From positions 1,152,001-1,216,000 of the forward strand of contig CBDCYI010000005.1 in assembly GCA_965224085.1 (NCBI GenBank): DNA of 64,000 nt, in the 5' to 3' direction. The notes under the pieces were generated by a model, which worked only from the letters and a program-made list of their open reading frames with translations, did no database searches and was not told the origin of the DNA. Below are positions 3,554 to 36,330 of the stretch, in pieces. Every line of letters starts with the position of its first letter. Position 1 is the first letter of the stretch. The DNA is from Candidatus Marinacidobacterales bacterium. Lineage in GTDB: Bacteria > Acidobacteriota > Vicinamibacteria > Marinacidobacterales > SMYC01. The translations under genes were made by a program, and so were the position numbers.

Positions 3554-4470
3554 GAAAGGACACCGCCTGTCAGCTCCGAAATCGACTCGACGTCGTGGCG
3601 CTCGCAATAGGCCTCGAGCCCGTCCAGCGTGCACCGCCACACGGACGGGTCGACGAAGCTCATCGTGCCGATTTGCACCGCCGAAGCACCCGCGAGGATG
3701 AACTCGAGCGCGTCTTCGTGTGACGTGATTCCCCCGATCCCGATGATGGGGATATTCACAGCTCTCGCTGTCTGGTAGACCATCCGCACCGCGATGGGAC
3801 GGATAGCGGGACCGGACAGCCCCCCCACGACGTTCGCGAGGCGGGGACGACGGCTCTCCACGTCGATCGCCATGGCCGGCATCGTATTGATGAGTGAGAC
3901 CGCGTCCGCGCCGGCCGCTTCGACACTCCGCGCCACCACCGTTATGTCGGTGACGTTGGGACTGAGCTTGGGGATGATCGGAAGCTTCGTCTGCGCTCGA
4001 ACCGCCGCGGTCACCCGCGCCGCCATGTCCGGATCGCATCCGAAGAGAATCCCGCCCTCTTGGACGTTGGGGCAAGAAATGTTCATCTCGATGGCATGGA
4101 CGCCGTCGACGCCGTCGAGGATATGCGCAAGCTCTTGGTATTCCTCCAAAGTGTTGCCGCAAATGTTGACGAGGACGGTCGTCCCGAGCTCACGAAGCCG
4201 AGGCATTTTTTCGTCGATGAAGCGCCGGATACCCACTTCTTGAAGGCCGATCGCGTTCAACATCCCCGAAGGCGTTTCCCAGATCCGAGGAGGCGGGCAG
4301 CCTTCGCGAGGCTCGAGGTAGAGGCCTTTTACCGCGATGCCGCCAATGGCTTCGTAGTCGACAACGTCGAGATATTCGGTCCCGTAACCGAAAGTGCCGC
4401 TCGCAGCGATGAGCGGGGTTCGGAACCGGAGGCTTTTGAACGACACGCTCAGGTCGGGTTTTACCGTCAT
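3550..4470 (-). CDS. pyrD: dihydroorotate dehydrogenase B, catalytic subunit
   Basis: AASGTFGYG, MLNAIGLQ, EMNISCPNV, KLSPNVTDI, GGLSGPAIRP. Confidence 0.95.
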   Translation of the reverse strand: MTVKPDLSVSFKSLRFRTPLIAASGTFGYGTEYLDVVDYEAIGGIAVKGLYLEPREGCPPPRIWETPSGMLNAIGLQEVGIRRFIDEKMPRLRELGTTVLVNICGNTLEEYQELAHILDGVDGVHAIEMNISCPNVQEGGILFGCDPDMAARVTAAVRAQTKLPIIPKLSPNVTDITVVARSVEAAGADAVSLINTMPAMAIDVESRRPRLANVVGGLSGPAIRPIAVRMVYQTARAVNIPIIGIGGITSHEDALEFILAGASAVQIGTMSFVDPSVWRCTLDGLEAYCERHDVESISELTGGVLS

Positions 4471-5252
4471 AGCGGGTGTGGGTCGCGCTCCCACGCGATG
4501 ACGCTTGCATCGAAGACGGGACCTTCAGTGCAGGAGCGCACATACGCGCTCGTATAGACGACACAGCCGAGACAGCACCCCATACCGCAGCCCATGCGCC
4601 GCTCGAGCGAGACCTCGTGGGGGACACCTTTGGCCGCGGCGAGCTCGGCGACGCTCAACAACATGGGCGTCGGTCCGCAGGAATAGAGCTGGGTCTCGCC
4701 ATCGAGCGCGTCGTCGACCAGCGCTGTGACACGGCCCATGGTGCCCACGCTGCCATCCTCGGTCGTACAGCGCACATCCATTCCGAGCGCCTCGAACACC
4801 TCGCGCAGATACAGGTCATGCGCGGTCCGGCCTCCGAGTAGAACGAGGGCCACTTTCCCCACCGAGCTCAAAGCCCGGCAAAAGGCGACAAAGGGGGCGA
4901 TACCCACCCCGCCCGCGACGACGACAGGGCGTTTGGCATCGGGCGGCATCGAGAAAGCGGAGCCGAGGGGTCCTAGACAATCGGCCTCGTCGCCCGGAAG
5001 GAGCCGCGCCAGAGCGCGCGTACCCCGTCCTACCTCTTTCACGAGCAAACTGAACCGCCCAGCTGCGACATCGGCGTCGCAAAACGAATAGGGGCGGCGG
5101 AGCAACAGGCCGTCGTCGCTAGGCAGGCGCAGCATCGTGAACTGCCCCGGTCGGAACTCGTTCGCAAGAAAGTCGGATTCGAACTCGAGAAGGCTGGCAT
5201 CCTGCGAGAGGGCACGCCGCTCCAAAAGCTTAGCCCTCACGTCCCGTCTCAT
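4467..5252 (-). CDS. pyrK: dihydroorotate dehydrogenase electron-transfer subunit
   Basis: PGQF, LRRPYS, GGVGIAP, CGPTPML and the 2Fe-2S motif ERRMGCGMGCCLGC..C. Confidence 0.93.
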   Translation of the reverse strand: MRRDVRAKLLERRALSQDASLLEFESDFLANEFRPGQFTMLRLPSDDGLLLRRPYSFCDADVAAGRFSLLVKEVGRGTRALARLLPGDEADCLGPLGSAFSMPPDAKRPVVVAGGVGIAPFVAFCRALSSVGKVALVLLGGRTAHDLYLREVFEALGMDVRCTTEDGSVGTMGRVTALVDDALDGETQLYSCGPTPMLLSVAELAAAKGVPHEVSLERRMGCGMGCCLGCVVYTSAYVRSCTEGPVFDASVIAWERDPHPL

Positions 5253-5280
5253 CGGGGTGAGAGTATATCGCAGCGAGTTC

Positions 5281-5931
5281 TCAGGCCGCGTAGACGATGT
5301 TGTGGATGCGGCCGATCTTACCGCGCTGCGTGAGTCGGTAGAAACTCCGGAGCTCTGGAAGTAGAGCGCTCAAACGATCGCGCGCAAGGGCCGCTTGAAC
5401 GACGTGGGTGCAGTAGCGGGAGGCGAGCGAAGCCGCGGCTTTGTAACGCTCACGCGTCATCGGTTCCAGCTCGCGACGAATCTCGAAATCGCCAAAGAGC
5501 CGGTCGAGCAAATTACGGGGCACCCTGCCGTCATTCCGTGACGCCAGAAGGATCGTCGAAGTGATGAACTTGTCCACTTCTGCTTGAAGCTCGAGCTCGA
5601 GTTGGGTCACACGCCTCTCGCGCGACGCACTAAAGTGCAGATAAGCGAAATGGCTGACCTCTTCGATCGCCGTCACGAGCAGCTCGAAACTTTCGGCACG
5701 GATCGACGTCGTCAGGTCGATCTCTGAAAGCTGGTCGAGCGCCTCTTCCCCGATATAGACGCCGAGCTCGAGCTCCTCACGGCTATGCCCCTCGCGCACC
5801 ATCACGGCCGCGCGCGCTGCATCGTGGCCGAGACGCGCGCACATATCCGAAGAAATGAGAAAATCCTCGATATCGACTTCGAGCTCGAGACCGTAAACAC
5901 GATCGATGTGTCGAAAAATAGAGTCGAGCAT
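5281..5931 (-). CDS. hypothetical protein with zincin-like EEVSH...ELQAE motif
   Basis: 216-aa ORF 5 bp downstream of its partner gene; motif resembles HExxH..ELQAD of YpfJ-like metallopeptidases (inference). Confidence 0.7.
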   Translation of the reverse strand: MLDSIFRHIDRVYGLELEVDIEDFLISSDMCARLGHDAARAAVMVREGHSREELELGVYIGEEALDQLSEIDLTTSIRAESFELLVTAIEEVSHFAYLHFSASRERRVTQLELELQAEVDKFITSTILLASRNDGRVPRNLLDRLFGDFEIRRELEPMTRERYKAAASLASRYCTHVVQAALARDRLSALLPELRSFYRLTQRGKIGRIHNIVYAA

Positions 5932-5936
5932 AGTCT

Positions 5937-6513
5937 TCAGTGCACCTGCTTGGCCGATCGATCGAGAAGGATCCCCTCACGCTCGAGAAGCCGCCTGCTT
6001 CGCTCGCTTCCCGATTCGAGCCAACGCCCGTATAGGCGCAAAATCGAAGGTGCATCGGTGATCGCACTTTCTTCACTGACCTCGTGCAAAACGTCCACGA
6101 AGCGGCGAAATTTCTTAGAGAGCTCTTCGAACATCGCCGCGGCGTCGCGAGGGCTGAGCTCTGGGGCGCGCCCATAAGCAGAACCTCCCATGCGCATATA
6201 GTAGTCGAGCTCGACACGGCGGCGCACGATGCTGTCGGCAAAAAATCCGGAAACGAAGAGCGCTACATCGCCGGTGAGCTTGAGTTTTGTGAAACGCTCG
6301 CTGCCGCAACTCCTAAGAGCCTCGCAATAGAGTTCGGCGAGTGTCGCTTCAGGACCCGCCTCACACTGTTCGATCGCGACGAAGTTATCGAGGAGCTTCA
6401 CGAGATAGAAGGAGGAGAGCTCGCTCGATCGAAAATTCTGGCGGGCCATCACCTTCTCCACAACCTCCCTGAAATATTCGATCGGAGTCTCTGAGTGAAG
6501 TAGCCTGTCCATG
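5937..6513 (-). CDS. hypothetical protein
   Basis: AAAGGAGG RBS before MDRLLHSETP; helical protein with GDVALFVSGFF..YY..MG..AY. Confidence 0.75.
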
Positions 6514-6628
6514 ATGTTGCCTCCTTTCGAGCTAGCTGACCTTGATTCTTTTGAATGCAATTTGCGTGCACAACGAGGCGTAACGGGGACGCGAGCAGAA
6601 GCTGTTGAAAAGACAATTGAACCTTAAT

Positions 6629-6825
6629 TACAGTTTTCTCGATGGTTGAACGGGTGACAAAAACTGTCCCAAAACGGGTCGCAAAGATCAAAAGATGTCG
6701 ACTAGCAGTCTAGGGAGACAGAGTGCTACAGTTTTCTCGATGGTTGAACGGGTGACAAAAACTGTCCCAAAACGGGTCGCAAAGATCAAAAGATGTCGAC
6801 TAGCAGTCTAGGGAGACGAGTGCTA
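6629..6825. repeat. 98-bp direct tandem duplication containing CIRCE
   Basis: tacagttttctcgatgg...gagtgcta occurs at 6629 and 6727; copies differ by one base in the CIRCE spacer. Confidence 0.9.
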
Positions 6826-21998: not shown

Positions 21999-24719
21999 TT
22001 ATCTCAATCTAGCGAGCTCCGAAGCGCTCAGCTTCGCCGCCGGTCCCTGTACGAGCGCGTTGAAGAGCAACTTGAACGCCGCCGGTGTTTGCGTTCGAAA
22101 ATCCACTTGGCTCCCGAGCGCCACGACGCTTCCTTGCCCGACGTCGAAAGCGACGACACTCGCTTGATCGCGAAGAAGCTCACCGCCGAGAAGCCATCCG
22201 CTTGCGACGAGGTCCTCTTCGTCTGGATATTTGGACACAACCTCGGACGGAATTTCGAAATCGGGCTTGAGGCGATAGGCCTGATCGTGGCGGAAGAAAA
22301 CGGGCCAGCGCTCCGGCATGCCGAAGGCGATCGGATGGTTCGGGTTGTATTCTTGCTCCAGCAGCGACCCGGGGCAGTAGAAAACAGAAGTCGGATCGAC
22401 GACCCGGCCTTCGATCGCTTTGATGAGCTGCGCCGGGCTCTCGAAAGCCTCCTTGAACATGCGATCCGCTTCGCGTGCGGAGACCGAAGGGCGCGGGTCG
22501 GCGGGCTCCGGCCCACGTCGGCGGCGACGAGGTGCCTCCGGAAGAACGGGCTCGATAGGCAGGTCGAGCAGATCGCGGGCGGTTGCGACGGCGTTTCCTA
22601 TCGCGACGAGGGTGCCGCCATTTTTTACGAACTGACCGAGACGCTTCCAACCGGCTCGACCGATCCCATAGGCCCATCGCCACTCCTCGGAATGGCGAGA
22701 CGGCGATAATCCGTTTACCATTCGCTGCTTGGTCGTTCCCGCCGGCAGCAGAATGACGTCATATTTCTCCGCGAGGTCCGCTTCGAAATCCGTCGAGGAC
22801 ATGACCGCGTGATCGAACTCGTATTGTTCGAGCAGCCACATGAGCCAACCGGCCGGCATGTTGTTGGCGGCCCTGTAGAGACCGACTCGCGTCGGGCGCT
22901 TCATGCGAAAGCCTTCGACCCGCGCCGCCCGATCCGAGGCCAACACGGGAAGGCCGGTCTCCTTCGCGACCGACTCGAGAACGGACAGGGCTTTGCCGGT
23001 CGGAGGCACGAGCCAGGCGCCCGGGGCAACGATCTCGCCGGACAGCTCGAGCTCCGACCCCGCACGAAAGACCGGGACCCCTTCTTTCGAGAAACGATTG
23101 AGCGCGAGAAATCCGGCGTTCGAATCCGGCGGGACGACGTAGGCCCATTTGGGCCGGCCCGGCATCGGTAAGAGCGCCGGCTCCACTTTGTCGACGCTCG
23201 TAGTCGAAACGCGTAGCGGCTCGTCAATCTGCTCAACGGTAACACCCATCAAGTATCCGAGCGTATGCGCGGTCACGTCATAGGGAGGAATGGGCGGTCC
23301 GCCAGGGTAGTAGCGGAGATCGGGATATTCCTGCACTTCGAGCATCGTTTTTGCGAAAGCGCCGTAGGGTTGGTCGAGGGGAATAACCCAAGAGCCCTCC
23401 GGAAAGTCCCTTCCGTCCGCGTGGAAGGGCGAGCTCGCCCGATGAATCTCGACCTCGCCCGTGTCCAAGATGTCGAGCAATAGGAGCGTCGCGTAGGGAT
23501 CACGCTGCTCGTTCGGAATAACGAAGGCAAAAGGCGGCTCGTCGTGCTCCACCCAGTCGCGATGGATGTTGTAGAAGTTCTCGAGCCATGTTGTGCGATA
23601 TTTCGCGAGATGGGTGAGGCCTCCGAAAACGGCCGTGATGCCGTAATCCACGATCTGTCTGAGCCGCCATTCCGTTTCCGTATAAGGCCGCGGGAAGTTC
23701 CACCGTTTCTGTTGAGGGCCGAGCGGTTGGCCGTTCGGGCTCACAAAGGGGTCGGCGATATTAGCACTCGCGATCTCGGTGAGGATGCGCGGCTGGCCAT
23801 GATAGACCATGTATTGGCGCGCCGGCGTCCAGAGATCGTATTGGGTGTCGTAAGTGACGCCGTCTTTGCCGGCCGCGATGAGAGCGCCCGCCATCGCTAG
23901 ACCGAGCTGCGCTTGTTCTTCCACGATCAAAGGATGAATGTTTCCATCATAGGGGTCCTTGAACGGCGGAACGAAAATGCGGGCGCCCGTCGGGCCCATC
24001 TGATGCATGTCGTGCGTGACCGTCGGCTTGTAGACGTTTTGCACTTTCTCCAAATTGAGGCGCGTCTCGACTTGCGTGAACATGAACCAGTCGCGGTTGT
24101 CATCGTGGCCGACATATTTGTGATAGAGGTCCGGATAGACGCGGTCGTAGGGCGTATCTTTCGTTTCGTACCAGTGGTCGATGACCATCACCTGACCGTC
24201 CGGATTTTGGGAAGGGACGTAGAGAAGAACGGTGTTGTCGAGGATCTCCTGGATCTTTTTGGAGTCCTCGGTGGCTAAACGATGGACGATGAGCGGCACC
24301 GCTTGCCCGTTGCCGACTTCCGTCGAGTGGATCGTGGCGTAGAGGAAGTAGAACGGACGACCTTCTTCCGCCAGAGCCATCGCCTCGCTCTCGTCTAGAC
24401 CTCGAGGATCCGCCAAGCGCCGGTTGATCTCGACGAGGCGATCGAGACGGGCCAGGTTCTCCGGCGAGCTGATCTTGAGGAGCACATAAGGGTTGCCTTC
24501 GGTCGTCTTTCCGAGCTCCTCGTAGAGCACCCGATCCGATTCCCCCGCCACGTGCTGCAAATATTCGAGCACTTTGGGATAGCGGGCCATCTCGCCGTCC
24601 GTACCGAGACGAAATCCAAAGAACTCTTCGGGCTCCTGGATGGATTGTGCGGCGGCGGTAACGCTCATTACCGTCATCGCGATAGCCGAGAGCGCGAAAG
24701 AGCGAGCTATGCGGGACAT
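21999..24719 (-). CDS. secreted M14-family zinc carboxypeptidase-like protein
   Basis: signal peptide; IHSTE, NPDG, HDDNRD, HDMHQMG; C-terminal GATase-like domain. Confidence 0.85.
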   Translation of the reverse strand: MSRIARSFALSAIAMTVMSVTAAAQSIQEPEEFFGFRLGTDGEMARYPKVLEYLQHVAGESDRVLYEELGKTTEGNPYVLLKISSPENLARLDRLVEINRRLADPRGLDESEAMALAEEGRPFYFLYATIHSTEVGNGQAVPLIVHRLATEDSKKIQEILDNTVLLYVPSQNPDGQVMVIDHWYETKDTPYDRVYPDLYHKYVGHDDNRDWFMFTQVETRLNLEKVQNVYKPTVTHDMHQMGPTGARIFVPPFKDPYDGNIHPLIVEEQAQLGLAMAGALIAAGKDGVTYDTQYDLWTPARQYMVYHGQPRILTEIASANIADPFVSPNGQPLGPQQKRWNFPRPYTETEWRLRQIVDYGITAVFGGLTHLAKYRTTWLENFYNIHRDWVEHDEPPFAFVIPNEQRDPYATLLLLDILDTGEVEIHRASSPFHADGRDFPEGSWVIPLDQPYGAFAKTMLEVQEYPDLRYYPGGPPIPPYDVTAHTLGYLMGVTVEQIDEPLRVSTTSVDKVEPALLPMPGRPKWAYVVPPDSNAGFLALNRFSKEGVPVFRAGSELELSGEIVAPGAWLVPPTGKALSVLESVAKETGLPVLASDRAARVEGFRMKRPTRVGLYRAANNMPAGWLMWLLEQYEFDHAVMSSTDFEADLAEKYDVILLPAGTTKQRMVNGLSPSRHSEEWRWAYGIGRAGWKRLGQFVKNGGTLVAIGNAVATARDLLDLPIEPVLPEAPRRRRRGPEPADPRPSVSAREADRMFKEAFESPAQLIKAIEGRVVDPTSVFYCPGSLLEQEYNPNHPIAFGMPERWPVFFRHDQAYRLKPDFEIPSEVVSKYPDEEDLVASGWLLGGELLRDQASVVAFDVGQGSVVALGSQVDFRTQTPAAFKLLFNALVQGPAAKLSASELARLR

Positions 24720-24891
24720 AGGGCGGTCTCCTCGTCACGAATGTGGACGCTATGGGTCGACAGCATATTTCGACCAGCACCGAAAATCAACGCCCGGCAG
24801 GAACCCTCCGCCGCAGGAAAAAGCCATTGCATCAACGTTAGGCTTGCTAGAATGTGTCGTTCTCAATGAACAAAAGGGACAAAGGAGGAGC

Positions 24892-25581
24892 ATGGCAAGC
24901 TTGCAAGAACGTCAAAACGCGCATCACAACGTTCTACGCCATTTCGTCGAAAAGGGCCACGCGCCACTCTACACAAAATTGGCGGAAACACTCAGCGTCG
25001 CCCCCGATACCGCGAGGCGGCTTCTGCGCGAGACCACGGTCGAAAGCCCTTTCTCGTTCGCTTGGCTCACGCCGGACACCGACTTCGTAGGCGCATGGGC
25101 ACCTTTTTCCAACCTTCCGAGCCATAACGCTATCAGCGTCGAGGGGGTCCAGAAATGGTATGGCCAGTGAGGGATCGAAGCGCTGGCCGTGAGCCAGCTC
25201 TTCCCCGGTAAAGAGGTCACGATCGACACCCGCTGCTTGGAATCAGGCGACCCCATTCGGATCCGCATGCGCGACTCGGACGTGCTGGAGGTCACTCCCG
25301 AGACCGCCGTCGCCCACGCCAATGTCATGATGGATAAATGGGGCCAGCCCTCGTGGGCGTTCACGTGAGCTCGCATGAATCTCTTCCGGTCGGAAGAGAG
25401 CGTGCGCGCGTGGGCGGATTTCGACCCCCAGACGGACAAAGCCATCAAACCCGTCCGCGAGTGGGCGGGGATGGTGACGGGAGCGCGTGTGTTTCAAAAG
25501 CGGCTCGAGAACGACTTCGTCGAGAAGAGCGAAGAATACGCCACCGAAGCCCTGGGAGCACTCGGCAACGCCTTGAGCTGA
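24892..25581 (+). CDS. MerB-like (alkylmercury lyase fold) selenoprotein with two in-frame UGA codons
   Basis: GGAGG RBS; 229 aa on read-through of TGA at 25168 (KWYGQUGIEAL) and 25366 (AFTUARMNLFRS); RCLESGDPI Cys between them; SECIS-like hairpin after each UGA. Confidence 0.85.
25171..25206 (+). promoter_or_regulatory. bacterial SECIS-like hairpin 1
   Basis: ggg..gaag.gctggc-CGTGA-gccagc.cttc.ccc; loop begins 17 nt after UGA with G at loop position 2. Confidence 0.7.
25369..25406 (+). promoter_or_regulatory. bacterial SECIS-like hairpin 2
   Basis: cgcatg..tctcttcc-GGTC-ggaagaga..cgtgcg; loop begins 19 nt after UGA. Confidence 0.75.
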
Positions 25582-25646
25582 CGAAAGCGCCGCGATGACG
25601 CTCTTCGCCTATATCTTCGGTTGGGGTGCTCGATCGGCACAGACAG

Positions 25647-28600
25647 CTAGCGCCGCCCGAGTAGCTGTTCTACGGTTAGCAACCTGCCGTTGACGATCAC
25701 GACCTCCGTCGTCCTCAAGTTCTTGATGTCGTCGGTCGGATCACCCGCGAGAAGCACGAGGTCGGCGATTTTGCCCTCTTCCACCGTACCCAACTCGTCG
25801 TCAGCGCCCAAAGCCTCGGCGGCCCGTCCGGTCGCGCTCCGTATCGCTTCGATCGGACCGAGCCCCGCCTCAGAAAGCTGCTCGATCTCGAGGAGCAGGC
25901 TGAACCCGTAAGGAATGAGGGGCGAGTCGGTGCCGACGATGATCCGCGCGCCGCGCTCGCCGAGAGCGTCGACAGTGCTAAAAATTGGCGCCATGATGGA
26001 AAAGGATGCTTGCACGTCACCCGGAGGGGAGGCGGCCAGGAAACGGTTTTTGGACCACGGAGGGAACAGTACGACGAATCGCTCATCTTCTAAAAGATTA
26101 GGCTCGCGCGCGCGTGCGAGGCTAAAGCCGCCATAGATTAGAACCGTCGGTGTGTAGTAAACGCCCGAGCGCGCCACAATCTCGATAACGTCGTCATAGC
26201 TCCGTCTCAGAGCGGTGAGCTTGGGCGAAAAGCCGCGCCTCGACGTCCCAGCGACATGCTCGATGCCGTCGACACCATAGGCCACGGCCGGGTAGAGCTC
26301 ATGCGAAGTCACGTAGAATCCTTGACGGTGCGCTTCCTCGATCACGAGCTTCTGCAGAGGGTCGGGCAAACGGACATAGGTTTTGATCAAATCGTATTGA
26401 AGATCGAAAGCCCGCTGCATTTCTTGCGCGAGCTCCTCGACGTCACCGATGGCGTGGGCACCCGTGTAGTAGATGCGGTCGCCGTCGATCGTACCCCCCG
26501 TGAAAAAAACCCGCGGTCCGACGCGTCGGTTGGACAGGATGGACTCCCGTTCCTCGAGCACCCGATAAGGGGAGTCAGCGGGCGTGCGCATCGACGTGAT
26601 GCCGTAAGAGAGCCAAACTTTGCCATGGCGCGATCCCCAAGCGGGAAGGCTCAAATGCGTGTGCATTTCGATAAGACCGGGAATGAGCGTCCGGCCGTTC
26701 CCCTCGACGGCCCGCAAATCCTCGCTGACGATCCGCCCAGTGGGGCCGATGCTCTCGATCCGATTCCCGCCGATGAGCACGTCCTGGTGCTCACGGGGAG
26801 GCGCTCCAGTTCCATCGATGATGGTGACGTCGCGCAGCAATAGTTGGCCACGCGCGGCAGGAATCTCATATTGCAGATCGAGCTCGATGCGCTCGGGCCG
26901 ACCTCCATCGAGACCGACACGCTTCAGCCCGGTCGGCGTAACGAAGAGAATCCTTTGGCTGTCAGAAAACCAACTCGGAAAGTCGACCGCCTCCCCCGCG
27001 ATTTGGCGCGGAGCGCCGCTCGGCGTGCCATCGGCGGACACCGGCAGGACCCACAACCCGCCATCCATCGCGAAAGCGAGCAACCTGCCGTCCGGGCTCC
27101 ACACCGGTCCGTCGGCGTCGCGAGCTCCGGTACTCCGATCGATCTCGTCGAGAAGACGCGACGCGCGTGTTCGCGTGTTCACGACGAGGATGCGGTTGTA
27201 GCCTTCGCGAAAGCGGGTTGATAGCGGGACGTGCACGCTCAGCGCAACGTGGATGCTATCGCTCGACCAGGTCGGCTGGCTCACGCCTCGGCGCGCCTCG
27301 GTCAGCACTTCGTTTGTGCCGGACTCGACCGACAGCACGTGCAGCCGCGCATGTTCGTCCACATAGGCGATGTGAGTTCCGTCGGGCGACCACGCGGGAG
27401 CAAGCTCCGCGCCCACATCCGTCGTGAGGCGTCGGCCGCCGTCTGAGAGCGGGCTATCGACATCTTTGACCCACAGATCCATCGTGCCGCCGCGATCGGA
27501 GCTGTAGACGATCGAGCGTGAATCGGGCGACCAGAATGGATCGCTGTCGAGGTACTCGTCGCGAGTGAGTGCTATAGGCACCCCACCCGAAGGAGACACG
27601 GTCCAGAGGTCTCCCAAAGCCGCGAACGCGATCTTCGAGCCGTCCCACGCGAGGACGGGGCGCACGAGGCCTCGAACCAGAGCGGTCGCGCCATCACGGA
27701 TCTCGACTTTCCGTCTTTCGTAGGCGGGGCGGTCGAGCGTCACCGGAACCTCGAAAGGGACCGCGCTTGGCGCGCTCCCCACAGCGGCGAGATCCTGCCG
27801 CCACAACTGGCCCGCCGCGGTGTAAACGAGCGCCGAGGCACTCACCCATTCCGCGCGAAACGGGAATACGTCCTCCAGGCCATCGACATCCTCCACGCTA
27901 CCTACGCCGTCGCCGCTAGTGAGCACGAGCACGAGGCGGCTCGCGACCGGAGCGTCGCCCATAGCATCGGCGCTCGCGGAGCCGATGTCGAGCACACGCA
28001 ACGCAATGCGGGTGCCATCCGGGCTATAGGATGGAGAGGCAATCGGCTGCTCGAAGACGAGGAGCAGAACCGGCGGCAGGGCAGGCTTCTCCGGGCTCAG
28101 GCCGAGCTCGTACAGTGCCATCCCGCCCTCCGAACGCTCCGAAACGAAAACGAGCGCGTCCCCGTTAGGCGACCACGCGGGCATATAATCGCTCGCTCCG
28201 TCCGTCGTCAGCTGGGTCAGCTCGCGGGTCTCGAGCTCGAGAATCCAAATGTCATAGTTTCCCGCGCGGTCCGACGAGAAAGCCACCCGGGTGCCGTCCG
28301 GAGAGAAGACAGGTTCGCGATCGTCGAAGCGACTCGCCGTGAGAGCCGTGAGGTTGGCGCCATCTACCCCCGCCGTATCGATCGTCCAGATGTCCCACGT
28401 CCCGTTGCGGAAGGACTGGAAGACGAGTCGCATCCCGTCGCTCGAGAAATGAGGCAGGCGATCATCACCGAGGCCGTCCGTCATCGCCGTGGCCGGTCCG
28501 CCCTCGGCGGGAAGACGCCAAAGCGTTCCCTGAAGGTCAAGGACGAAGCTGCCGTCCGCGGGAGAGAGCGCGGCCGCAAAGTTGGTCCCTTCGCGCAAAA

Positions 28601-35154: not shown

Positions 35155-35930
35155 GGCTTTGTTGCACGGCCCGATCGGGAGCGCGAGAATACCTCGCACG
35201 TGCCGCTTCAGGCGGCGCGATAGCTGTCCGGCATTCCCAGGACGGTGATCCGATTGAGTATGGAGCAGCCAATTTTGATCTCAATGCGCTGACTTTGCAG
35301 GTTCCGCGCCCGTAGTCGTCCACCGAGGATCGTCTTGTATCGATAGATCGCCGTCTCCACGAGACTTCGCCGGGTGTACCCCGATTCTTTCTGCCACCGA
35401 CGACGACCGATCTCGTGGATCGAGTGGATGGCCTTGTCCCGTTCGCTTTCCAACTGCATCTTTCCTACCTAATCGGGCGTTGCGCCTCGGTGGAATGATG
35501 ACCTTCGTCGGCTGATGCGAGGGATGGTTCGCAATCGCTTCATACACGGCTCTGGAATCATAGGCACCGTCTGCGGTCATGGACGCGAGCTCGTGGTGGA
35601 TCATCTGCCGGAGTCCCAGGCTGTAAACCGAGCGCACGGTGAGAGCTGTTTCGATGGCCAGGTCGGAGTAGATCTGCTGGCCACCGGGCTTGGAGCCAGC
35701 CGGTGCGTGCCACGCCGCGATCGCTTCCTCGGAGAACCAGAGCGTCAGGTCGCCTCGCCGTCGCAGCGCCCTCTCATACTCCGGCCAGTTACGAAGGTGA
35801 TAGGGTCTCTTGGTGCACTTGTGCTGGCTCCGTTTCGGATAGCGCATCGTGGCTCTCGAATCTGGGCTAACTGGAATGTGCCATGATAGCCAGTCTGTCG
35901 ATCGCAGCCGCGCAGCCGTGCACCAAAGCC
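35155..35930 (-). mobile_element. IS5-family (IS903-like) element with internally deleted transposase
   Basis: TIRs ggctttgttgcacgg / ccgtgcaccaaagcc; fragments YHLRNWPEYERALRRRGDLTLWF, ADGAYD, RRSLVETAIYRYK. Confidence 0.85.
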
Positions 35931-36330
35931 ACGAGAAGGTCGTCCGTCGCGTTTTTGGTTCAGCGTCTCTATACGGCCAGGTGATCAAGACGCGAAGAAA
36001 CGATCGTATCGTGAAGGTCGAACGAAGAGAGGTGATGGGAGCGTCGTGGCGGTTCGAAGAAGTGCTCAACAACTCCGAGGACTCGTCGACATTGAATACG
36101 TCGTTCATCGAACGGATGAATCTGACCATTCGACAGGGCGCGGCCTATCTGACTCGGAGAACGCTCTCCCATGCTCGCTCGAAGGATAAGCTCGACGAAC
36201 ATCTCGAGCTGCTGAGATGTCATTACAACTTCGTCCGCCCGCATCGCGCTCTAAAGTTCGGCGTGAGACCCGGACTCCGGCGATGCAGGCCGGACTCGCC
36301 ACCCGGCGACTCACTTTCCGCGAGGTATTC
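35931..36330 (+). pseudogene. IS1-family transposase C-terminal fragment
   Basis: LYGQVIK..NTSFIERMNLTIRQ..RRT..HYNFVRPH. Confidence 0.7.

Follow-up and report, generated by a model that had tools for sequence, protein, structure and literature searches.

Candidatus Marinacidobacterales bacterium, a member of the Acidobacteriota, carries a previously unannotated kind of MerB-like selenoprotein with selenocysteine (Sec) at both catalytic positions, which is neither the canonical organomercury lyase MerB nor SaoL, a MerB-like selenoprotein described before. The gene lies in a stretch of 64,000 nucleotides of contig CBDCYI010000005.1 (positions 1,152,001 to 1,216,000 of the forward strand), called the window throughout, and is part of a distinct and widespread subfamily that is unannotated as such. 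With high confidence it is a genuine two-Sec selenoprotein of the MerB family: the fold, the residues of the site, the recoding signals and their conservation are matters of observation. The wider picture, that of a real and intact gene for a bis-Sec MerB fold which is recoded through selenocysteine insertion sequence (SECIS) hairpins and builds a putative soft-metal or organometal site, is very probable as a whole. By analogy with MerB, the site probably binds a soft metal or metalloid, and the chance that it also works as a catalytic carbon-metal lyase appears somewhat short of even.

The gene occupies 24892-25581 on the plus strand as a single frame of 229 codons, and the coding sequence, terminal TGA included, is supported by its translation, by Pfam, AlphaFold2 and Foldseek, and by the ratio of nonsynonymous to synonymous substitution rates (dN/dS). 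It starts with ATG at 24892-24894, and a Shine-Dalgarno-like GGAGG, read from the sequence, is found on the same strand at 24884-24888, 3 nt ahead of the start codon; GGAGG likewise precedes the ATG of the ortholog L018. Inside the frame the only stops are two TGA codons, namely codon 93 at 25168-25170 (site 1) and codon 159 at 25366-25368 (site 2), which are read as Sec (U93 and U159) and stand in the peptide contexts KWYGQ-U-GIE and AFT-U-ARMNLFRS. Between them are found the GAA codon 96 for Glu (E96, 25177-25179) and the TGC codon 115 for Cys (C115, 25234-25236), the latter in the context TR-C115-LESGDPI. The terminal TGA at 25579-25581 is a true stop, with no stable hairpin after it (z-score -0.12); at the same aligned residue L018 ends with TAG, and the distant relative L019 has its TAG stop seven alignment columns before the window's end. 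The standard list of open reading frames (ORFs) splits the locus into 24640-25170 and 25375-25581. An original prediction, made from the letters of the window, had already described the frame from ATG 24892 with its GGAGG ribosome-binding site to 25581, the two TGA codons, the break in the ORF track and the three peptide contexts, and the sequence agrees with it exactly. By a consensus scan of 24700-25720 no promoter-like site was found, and in the same region a terminator scan gave one terminator-like site, on the minus strand inside the gene, which was not above shuffles.

The product obtained by reading through both TGAs matches the Pfam MerB family (PF03243) over residues 72-190 with 80.6 bits against a cut-off of 27, and since the E-value is 1.2e-22 this match is not a matter of chance; the orthologs score 60-76 bits with the same model. 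In the HMMER alignment to the E. coli MerB chain 1s6l, U93 is paired with C96, E96 with D99, C115 with C117 and U159 with C159, which bears out the prediction that Sec codons stand at both catalytic Cys positions and that Glu replaces Asp99. The best match by sequence in the PDB is MerB2 (5c17, E 1.2e-7). A model built by AlphaFold2 from an alignment of 42 sequences (A4) reached a predicted local distance difference test (pLDDT) score of 95.5 and a predicted template modelling (TM) score, pTM, of 0.90, and with this model Foldseek gave 11 PDB matches with E <= 0.001, all of them MerB or MerB2 chains (TM 0.46-0.67 over 193-226 columns), beyond which the next match had only E 0.6. From the Pfam match and the MerB-only Foldseek matches it follows that the protein is a member of the MerB superfamily, and the predicted likeness to MerB therefore held in the comparison of profiles as well as of structures. 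Both E96 and C115 are nearly invariant in A4. At 25234-25245, the window's clade reads C-L-E-S-G where most relatives read C-L-D-C-G, so the second Cys of the CxxC that stands beside the conserved Cys115 position in relatives is lost in this clade. We dropped the idea that the N-terminal 70 residues form a DNA-binding winged helix, as the Foldseek matches to DtxR/IdeR had E >= 0.6 and MerB covers the region.

For the recoding of UGA, the genome holds a tRNA-Sec (74 bits, anticodon TCA), SelA (457 bits), SelB, whose wing (winged-helix) domain scores 55 bits in an open frame of 649 aa, and SelD (280 bits), so that selA, selB, selC and selD, proposed in the original prediction as a check, are all present. 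After both internal UGAs there is a hairpin whose base begins 3 nt downstream of the codon and whose apical loop contains GU. SECIS candidate 1 lies at 25171-25206 on the plus strand (core stem 25182-25187 / 25193-25198, loop CGUGA, -22.0 kcal/mol, z -1.4), and SECIS candidate 2 at 25369-25409 on the same strand (core stem 25380-25387 / 25392-25399, loop GGUC, -30.3 kcal/mol, z -2.5), with its apical stem and loop encoded in the codons of F-R-S-E. For site 2 the evidence of a conserved RNA structure is clear. The stem with its GGUC loop is found in 22 of 23 Sec-containing homologs, the exception being L022 with a different loop, and it is missing in both of the two homologs with Cys at site 2; covariation scores 0.224 where shuffling gives 0.122 on average, none of 500 shuffles is as high, slid controls do not exceed 0.113, and compensatory changes occur at pairs 16-33 and 17-32 of the 23-sequence alignment. 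For site 1, 94.9% of the cells are paired in 74 Sec forms, against at most 57% in slid controls. Of the ten relatives that have Cys at site 1, roughly half disrupt the arms of the site-1 hairpin or alter the Leu codon, a descriptive count over related sequences, which fits a relaxed constraint on the RNA. The locus thus has the features by which bacterial selenoproteins are recognized, namely in-frame UGA with a conserved frame on both sides, sel genes in the genome, Cys-containing homologs, and a conserved stem-loop, which is covarying at site 2 and conserved with mostly one-sided changes at site 1.

As to the distribution of the gene, we surveyed 401 genomes of the phylum, that of the window (G000) included, and found a match in 23, of which 3 have two TGAs, 18 have one and 2 are without TGA; the three two-TGA genomes are G000, G399 (76% identity) and G142 (37%). 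Two genomes flagged as unpublished, G024 (locus L022) and G152 (locus L031), count in these tallies and make 2 of the 23 rows of alignment A1, and no conclusion depends on them. A scan of metagenomes gave at least 506 relatives, and in the 80 kept, site 2 is TGA in 80/80, and site 1 is TGA in 71 and Cys in 9. The subfamily set used below consists of 84 motif-selected loci, 74 of them with Sec at both sites (U/U) and 10 with Cys at site 1 and Sec at site 2 (C/U); TGA at site 2 is found in all 84, with the proviso that this set and the metagenome relatives are biased to Sec at site 2, because M-N-L-F-R-S-E-E was one of the scan patterns. The hallmarks of the subfamily are W-[YF]-G-Q-U-G-x-E at site 1 and U-x-x-M-N-L-F-R-S-E-E at site 2, and both TGAs are kept down to about 35-40% identity. 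Moreover, an exhaustive profile search of proteins returned 960 matches with E <= 0.001, among which P0084-P0086 are full-length Cys/Cys relatives that read Q-C-G-x-E at site 1. The search for homologs carrying Cys or TGA at the two sites, suggested at the outset, thus turned up U/U, C/U and Cys/Cys forms. The family comes from Acidobacteriota, Actinomycetota and varied metagenomes. Selection was estimated with the two closest orthologs used for dN/dS: against L018 the ratio is 0.11 for codons 1-92, 0.17 for 94-158 and 0.13 for 160-229, and against L042 it is 0.08, 0.21 and 0.12 for the same segments. Against the distant L019 (30-39% identity per segment) it is 0.25-0.57, with synonymous sites close to saturation.

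Among the protein databases, a collection of 5.8 billion proteins has the family as fragments, and the pieces of the window's type are 92, 59 and 68 aa long and named 'hypothetical', just as expected from the claim that standard gene callers would miss the gene. The fragments were classified from 82 matches, namely 81 shorter than the query plus P0002: 29 are N-terminal, 28 of which stop at the residue before site 1; 16 are middle pieces, all stopping just before site 2; 33 are C-terminal, most of them beginning at the first Met after site 2; and 4 are of other kinds. It is because relatives are truncated in the database that a search for proteins of near-equal length gave 1 match only. One JGI/IMG entry, the 'hypothetical protein' P0232 of 229 aa, is an ortholog translated in full with W at both Sec positions, which is likely the result of code 4 having been selected in the gene calling of a short contig.

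The two TGA codons were further verified in other sequence data. Thirteen runs from 6 studies contain at least part of the stretch. X3 record 5 (24850-25583) and X7 record 10 (24850-25383) come from two studies, neither of which is that of X2, the possible source, and both show the two TGAs with 0 differences; since contigs of other studies cover both codons in this way, the TGAs are no sequencing error. The prediction had singled out TGC or TGT in the reads as evidence against Sec, and the run contigs of these two further studies keep TGA at both places. Even X7 record 11, from a co-occurring strain that has diverged by 21 differences in 216 nt, leaves the codon at 25168-25170 unchanged.

Several observations weigh against a recoded gene. 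At site 1 the changes are almost all one-sided, from G.U to G-C or A-U, and covariation is weak; 14 of 500 shuffles reach the percentage of pairing there and 9 of 500 the covariation score; and the conserved peptide L-A-V-R-W could explain part of the nucleotide conservation. No Rfam family or SECIS was matched in 24000-26500 at E <= 10 (a match to RalA, with 13.8 bits against 170, was put down to chance). Among the 14 runs listed, none that contains the stretch is on record as RNA. The gene can also be lost, because L040, the closest named relative, has a pseudogene copy. One may propose a decaying pseudogene or an error of sequencing or assembly, with the TGAs as plain stops and at most a 92-aa fragment made, for which the dead copy of L040 (with site 1 changed to TAA and 1,479 bp inserted), the fragments given by gene callers and the lack of expression support would speak. 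However, both TGAs are kept in 74 of the 84 loci, dN/dS is low (0.12-0.21) downstream of each TGA, hairpins follow the internal TGAs only, relatives exist with Cys at the two sites, and contigs of independent studies show the same TGAs, which makes such an explanation very improbable. Still a little less credit is due to a variant code in which TGA means an ordinary amino acid such as Trp or Gly. The translation of an ortholog with W at both sites (P0232) would favour it, but that entry is most simply a code-4 gene call on a short contig, and moreover the window ends on TGA where L018 ends on TAG, homologs carry Cys rather than Trp or Gly at both sites, and both the full Sec machinery and hairpins resembling SECIS were found. 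Even taken together, these two accounts have a very small share of the probability.

Compared with known systems, the protein shares with canonical MerB (E. coli plasmid R831b; PDB 1s6l, 3f0o and 3f0p) the Pfam MerB domain and the fold (TM 0.57-0.67 over 205-226 columns), and it likewise has a chalcogen at the Cys96 and Cys159 positions, an acid at Asp99 and a Cys at Cys117. In contrast, its triad is Sec/Glu/Sec instead of Cys96/Asp99/Cys159, chemically analogous and not identical; the identity is about 15-18%, the C-terminal helical extension differs, and the gene has no mer operon nearby. An assignment to canonical MerB (EC 4.99.1.2) was rejected on the NCBIfam models NF009710 and NF033555, with 33.8 bits against 193 and 31.3 against 200, together with the Glu and the absence of mer genes. 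The best structural match is MerB2 (PDB 5c17, E 2.5e-9), which shares the fold and has Cys at both Sec sites; it differs in having Ser at the window's Glu96 and Cys rather than Sec, and the identity is 17%.

That Sec-containing MerB-like families had been reported already was anticipated in the original prediction, and SaoL, with one Sec in a CU motif, is such a case. According to Haft & Gwadz (2022, bioRxiv 10.1101/2022.07.06.499078), SaoL is a MerB-like selenoprotein encoded in the nine-gene SAO locus found in anaerobes; its one Sec belongs to a CU dipeptide at the Cys159 position, and its first site has Cys and Asp. The two proteins are alike in belonging to the MerB superfamily, in the Sec at the Cys159 position and in database entries truncated at UGA, but the window's protein has Sec at both sites, Thr before the second Sec (F-T-U) and Glu at the acid position. 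SaoL (NCBIfam NF040728) was thus rejected as a name for it. The score of 32.3 bits falls short of the cut-off of 140, a CU motif is missing, and the SAO neighbourhood is not seen: the 12 ORFs scanned around the gene have no transporter family except one weak TLC match, and the 71 flanking ORFs of relatives have no recurring transporter set, only single matches to MFS, a solute-binding protein, TctC and cation efflux. The relatives score 22-47 bits with the SaoL model, and in six relatives tested no NCBIfam cut-off was passed. There is also a separate single-Sec MerB-like family in 18 genomes of the phylum (L020-L024, L026-L032 and L034-L039). It keeps Cys and Asp at site 1 in G-N-C-[AI]-W-D, and has Sec at site 2 after Thr, Ser or Asn and not after Cys; it shares the F-R-S-E / GGUC SECIS with the window and is 24-32% identical. 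By score, neither of the two members tested belongs to SaoL: L024 gave 47.5 bits against 140 and L020 no match.

Two Sec in one protein are known elsewhere: SelL, a eukaryote-type protein with thioredoxin-like fold, has two Sec in one UxxU redox motif that form a diselenide. The likeness is that two Sec serve one site, whereas those of SelL are adjacent and those of the window's protein are 66 residues apart in a metal-binding fold. As for prokaryotes, in two selenoproteome reviews, of 2022 and 2026, SaoL is the only MerB-like entry, and the 2026 review counts 119 families or subfamilies, the vast majority with a single Sec and a small subset with 2-3. No two-Sec MerB-like protein or MerB-cyclase fusion was found in the full-text literature, with subscription journals and supplements outside the scope of the search; other subfamilies of MerB-like selenoproteins might be given in the supplementary tables of PMC9312934, of PMC13188914 and of the preprint by Haft & Gwadz. 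Within the literature searched, a two-Sec metal site in a MerB fold is thus undescribed.

The architecture of the relatives gives further clues to the function. As in the window, the protein is stand-alone in 55 of the 84 loci (49 U/U, 6 C/U). In 18 loci (14 U/U, 4 C/U) it is fused at its C-terminus to a class III nucleotide cyclase, recognized by Pfam in 8 of 8 tested plus L041, and in 4 loci, all U/U, to a C-terminal AAA ATPase, with Pfam AAA found in 3 of 4; the remaining U/U loci are cut by contig ends (5) or of unclear architecture (2). The cyclase fusions, of the adenylate/guanylate type, include L060:234-1412, L074:4001-5158 and L041:155-1342 plus 15 other loci, and their tail past site 2 is 234 aa long in 17 of 18 and 237 aa in L041. 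The AAA fusions are L050:4001-5536, L052, L063 and L076, with a fused domain of about 290 aa. In a quick IQ-TREE maximum likelihood tree, the fused forms make one clade of 27 rows, with a support of 99 by the Shimodaira-Hasegawa-like approximate likelihood ratio test (SH-aLRT), and this clade, the window's clade (with L010, L018 and L042; support 99) and a large stand-alone clade fall into one unresolved group. Forms with Cys at site 1 occur in at least 4 places of the tree, and the placement of the long branches (the Cys/Cys rows and L113) is unsure. The fusions of the sister clade suggest that occupancy of the site can serve as a signal.

By analogy with MerB, a mechanism can be proposed. 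The product would be a cytosolic MerB-fold protein of 229 aa in which Sec takes the place of both metal-binding catalytic Cys and Glu96 that of the proton-relay Asp99. SelB and tRNA-Sec would recode each UGA via its own SECIS hairpin, placed within the coding sequence about 11 nt downstream. Sec93, Glu96 and Sec159 could then form a site of two selenolates and one carboxylate which captures a soft metal or metalloid centre, such as that of organomercury or another organometal, and Glu96 might deliver the proton by which the carbon-metal bond is cleaved through protonolysis and the hydrocarbon released. Since there is no MerA to accept the product, the metal would presumably stay bound, as in a trap or a signal, or leave by exchange with small thiols.

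A number of facts count against the step of catalysis. The prediction had stated that no mer genes are nearby, and in fact a scan of the 12 large ORFs between 14 and 36 kb of the window shows none. The same is seen in the relatives, for which the nearest 71 of 128 listed flanking ORFs, from 41 loci, were scanned and gave no conserved partner and no mer genes, some apparent downstream ORFs belonging in truth to the gene itself as its fused cyclase portion. The genome is 95% complete; its best MerA match has 361.6 bits against a cut-off of 454.45 with none above it, and MerT was not found; this genome-wide search covered merA and merT and not merR or merP. Very tight binding of Hg to Se would hinder the release of product, and the cyclase and AAA fusions of the sister clade suit a sensor better than an enzyme. 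It is therefore a real possibility, though we give it less weight than the lyase, that the same two-Sec protein is no enzyme at all, and instead binds a soft metal, a metalloid or a reactive electrophile with very high affinity, as a sensor, trap or chaperone whose output is its occupancy. The original prediction had offered another organometal substrate or a stand-alone high-affinity Hg/metal handler as possible functions; the sensing role, raised by the fusions, goes beyond it. This would agree with the fusion of the module to a class III cyclase (18/84 loci) or an AAA domain (4/84), with the single fused clade (SH-aLRT 99) near the window's clade, with the lack of a product acceptor such as MerA in the genome, and with the stand-alone cyclase genes that adjoin the gene in L105 and L114. 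However, the protein of the window is itself stand-alone and has no output domain, the fusions are outside its clade, and Glu at the Asp99 position in 84 of 84 loci is as needed for proton transfer, although it may be a metal ligand and was required at position 96 by the site-1 search pattern. Another idea, that the Sec pair makes a reversible diselenide or selenenyl species and works as a redox switch or oxidoreductase rather than as a metal site, seems to us unlikely. In its favour, alignment and fold predict that both Sec sit where MerB has Hg between its two Cys; a gene for a thioredoxin-like DUF255 protein is found 3 kb away; and according to PMC9312934 a redox function is assumed for most prokaryotic selenoproteins. 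Nevertheless fold and triad alike are of the metal-binding lyase type, the site has no thioredoxin-like CxxC/UxxC motif, there is no conserved redox partner in 41 neighbourhoods, and the Cys/Sec and Cys/Cys variants keep Glu96. A soft-metal site with a possible lyase activity is hence the reading that we prefer. Tentatively, the bis-selenolate module might have two uses, stand-alone as a demethylase independent of mer, or a trap, for methylmercury and compounds like it, and fused as a sensory input.

If the stand-alone use is true, the protein would be a methylmercury demethylase or trap in soil, sediment and marine bacteria; if the fused use is true, it would be the first Sec-dependent sensory input domain for cyclic-nucleotide signalling within the literature searched. 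The mer-independent turnover of methylmercury is an open question in mercury cycling, and should the family handle organomercury, the strong affinity of Hg for Se would be tied to an enzyme and offer a candidate for such turnover. With the cyclase and AAA fusions at hand, the idea of a Sec-based sensor can be put to a direct test. Metagenomes are rich in the family (the at least 506 relatives), yet the databases hold only fragments of it, and the conserved pair of SECIS gives a simple signature for correcting the annotation. These points should be of interest to both selenoprotein and mercury biochemists.

Some further features of the locus and its surroundings were noted. The neighbours of the gene in the window encode an M14 peptidase, a PD40-amidohydrolase, the DUF255 thioredoxin-like protein and a beta-lactamase-fold protein, and an ORF with a DDE-transposase domain lies at 35281-36129 on the minus strand, about 10 kb downstream of the gene. 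No second gene with a MerB domain was found in the 95%-complete genome. The selD match, at G000:C5:1545162-1546073 outside the window, is in an open frame of 774 aa against the 311 positions of the model, which could point to a fusion or just to GC-rich DNA, in which a frame can stay open over a long distance. The pseudogene in L040 is at 4358-6690 of that locus, from the Candidatus Marinacidobacterales metagenome-assembled genome OZ240210.1. Its site 1 is TAA and not TGA, and the gene is split after about codon 54 by the element of 1,479 bp, which has a DNA methylase / HNH ORF and ends in perfect 22-nt inverted repeats at 4521-4542 and 5978-5999. Finally, pieces of 33-34 nt in other contigs match only 25365-25398 of the window, that is, UGA-159 and its hairpin, with 3 differences, and some of these contigs are deeper (e.g. 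X3 record 7 at depth 73.8), so that the sequence of SECIS candidate 2 seems to recur, at the nucleotide level, in other genes of these samples.

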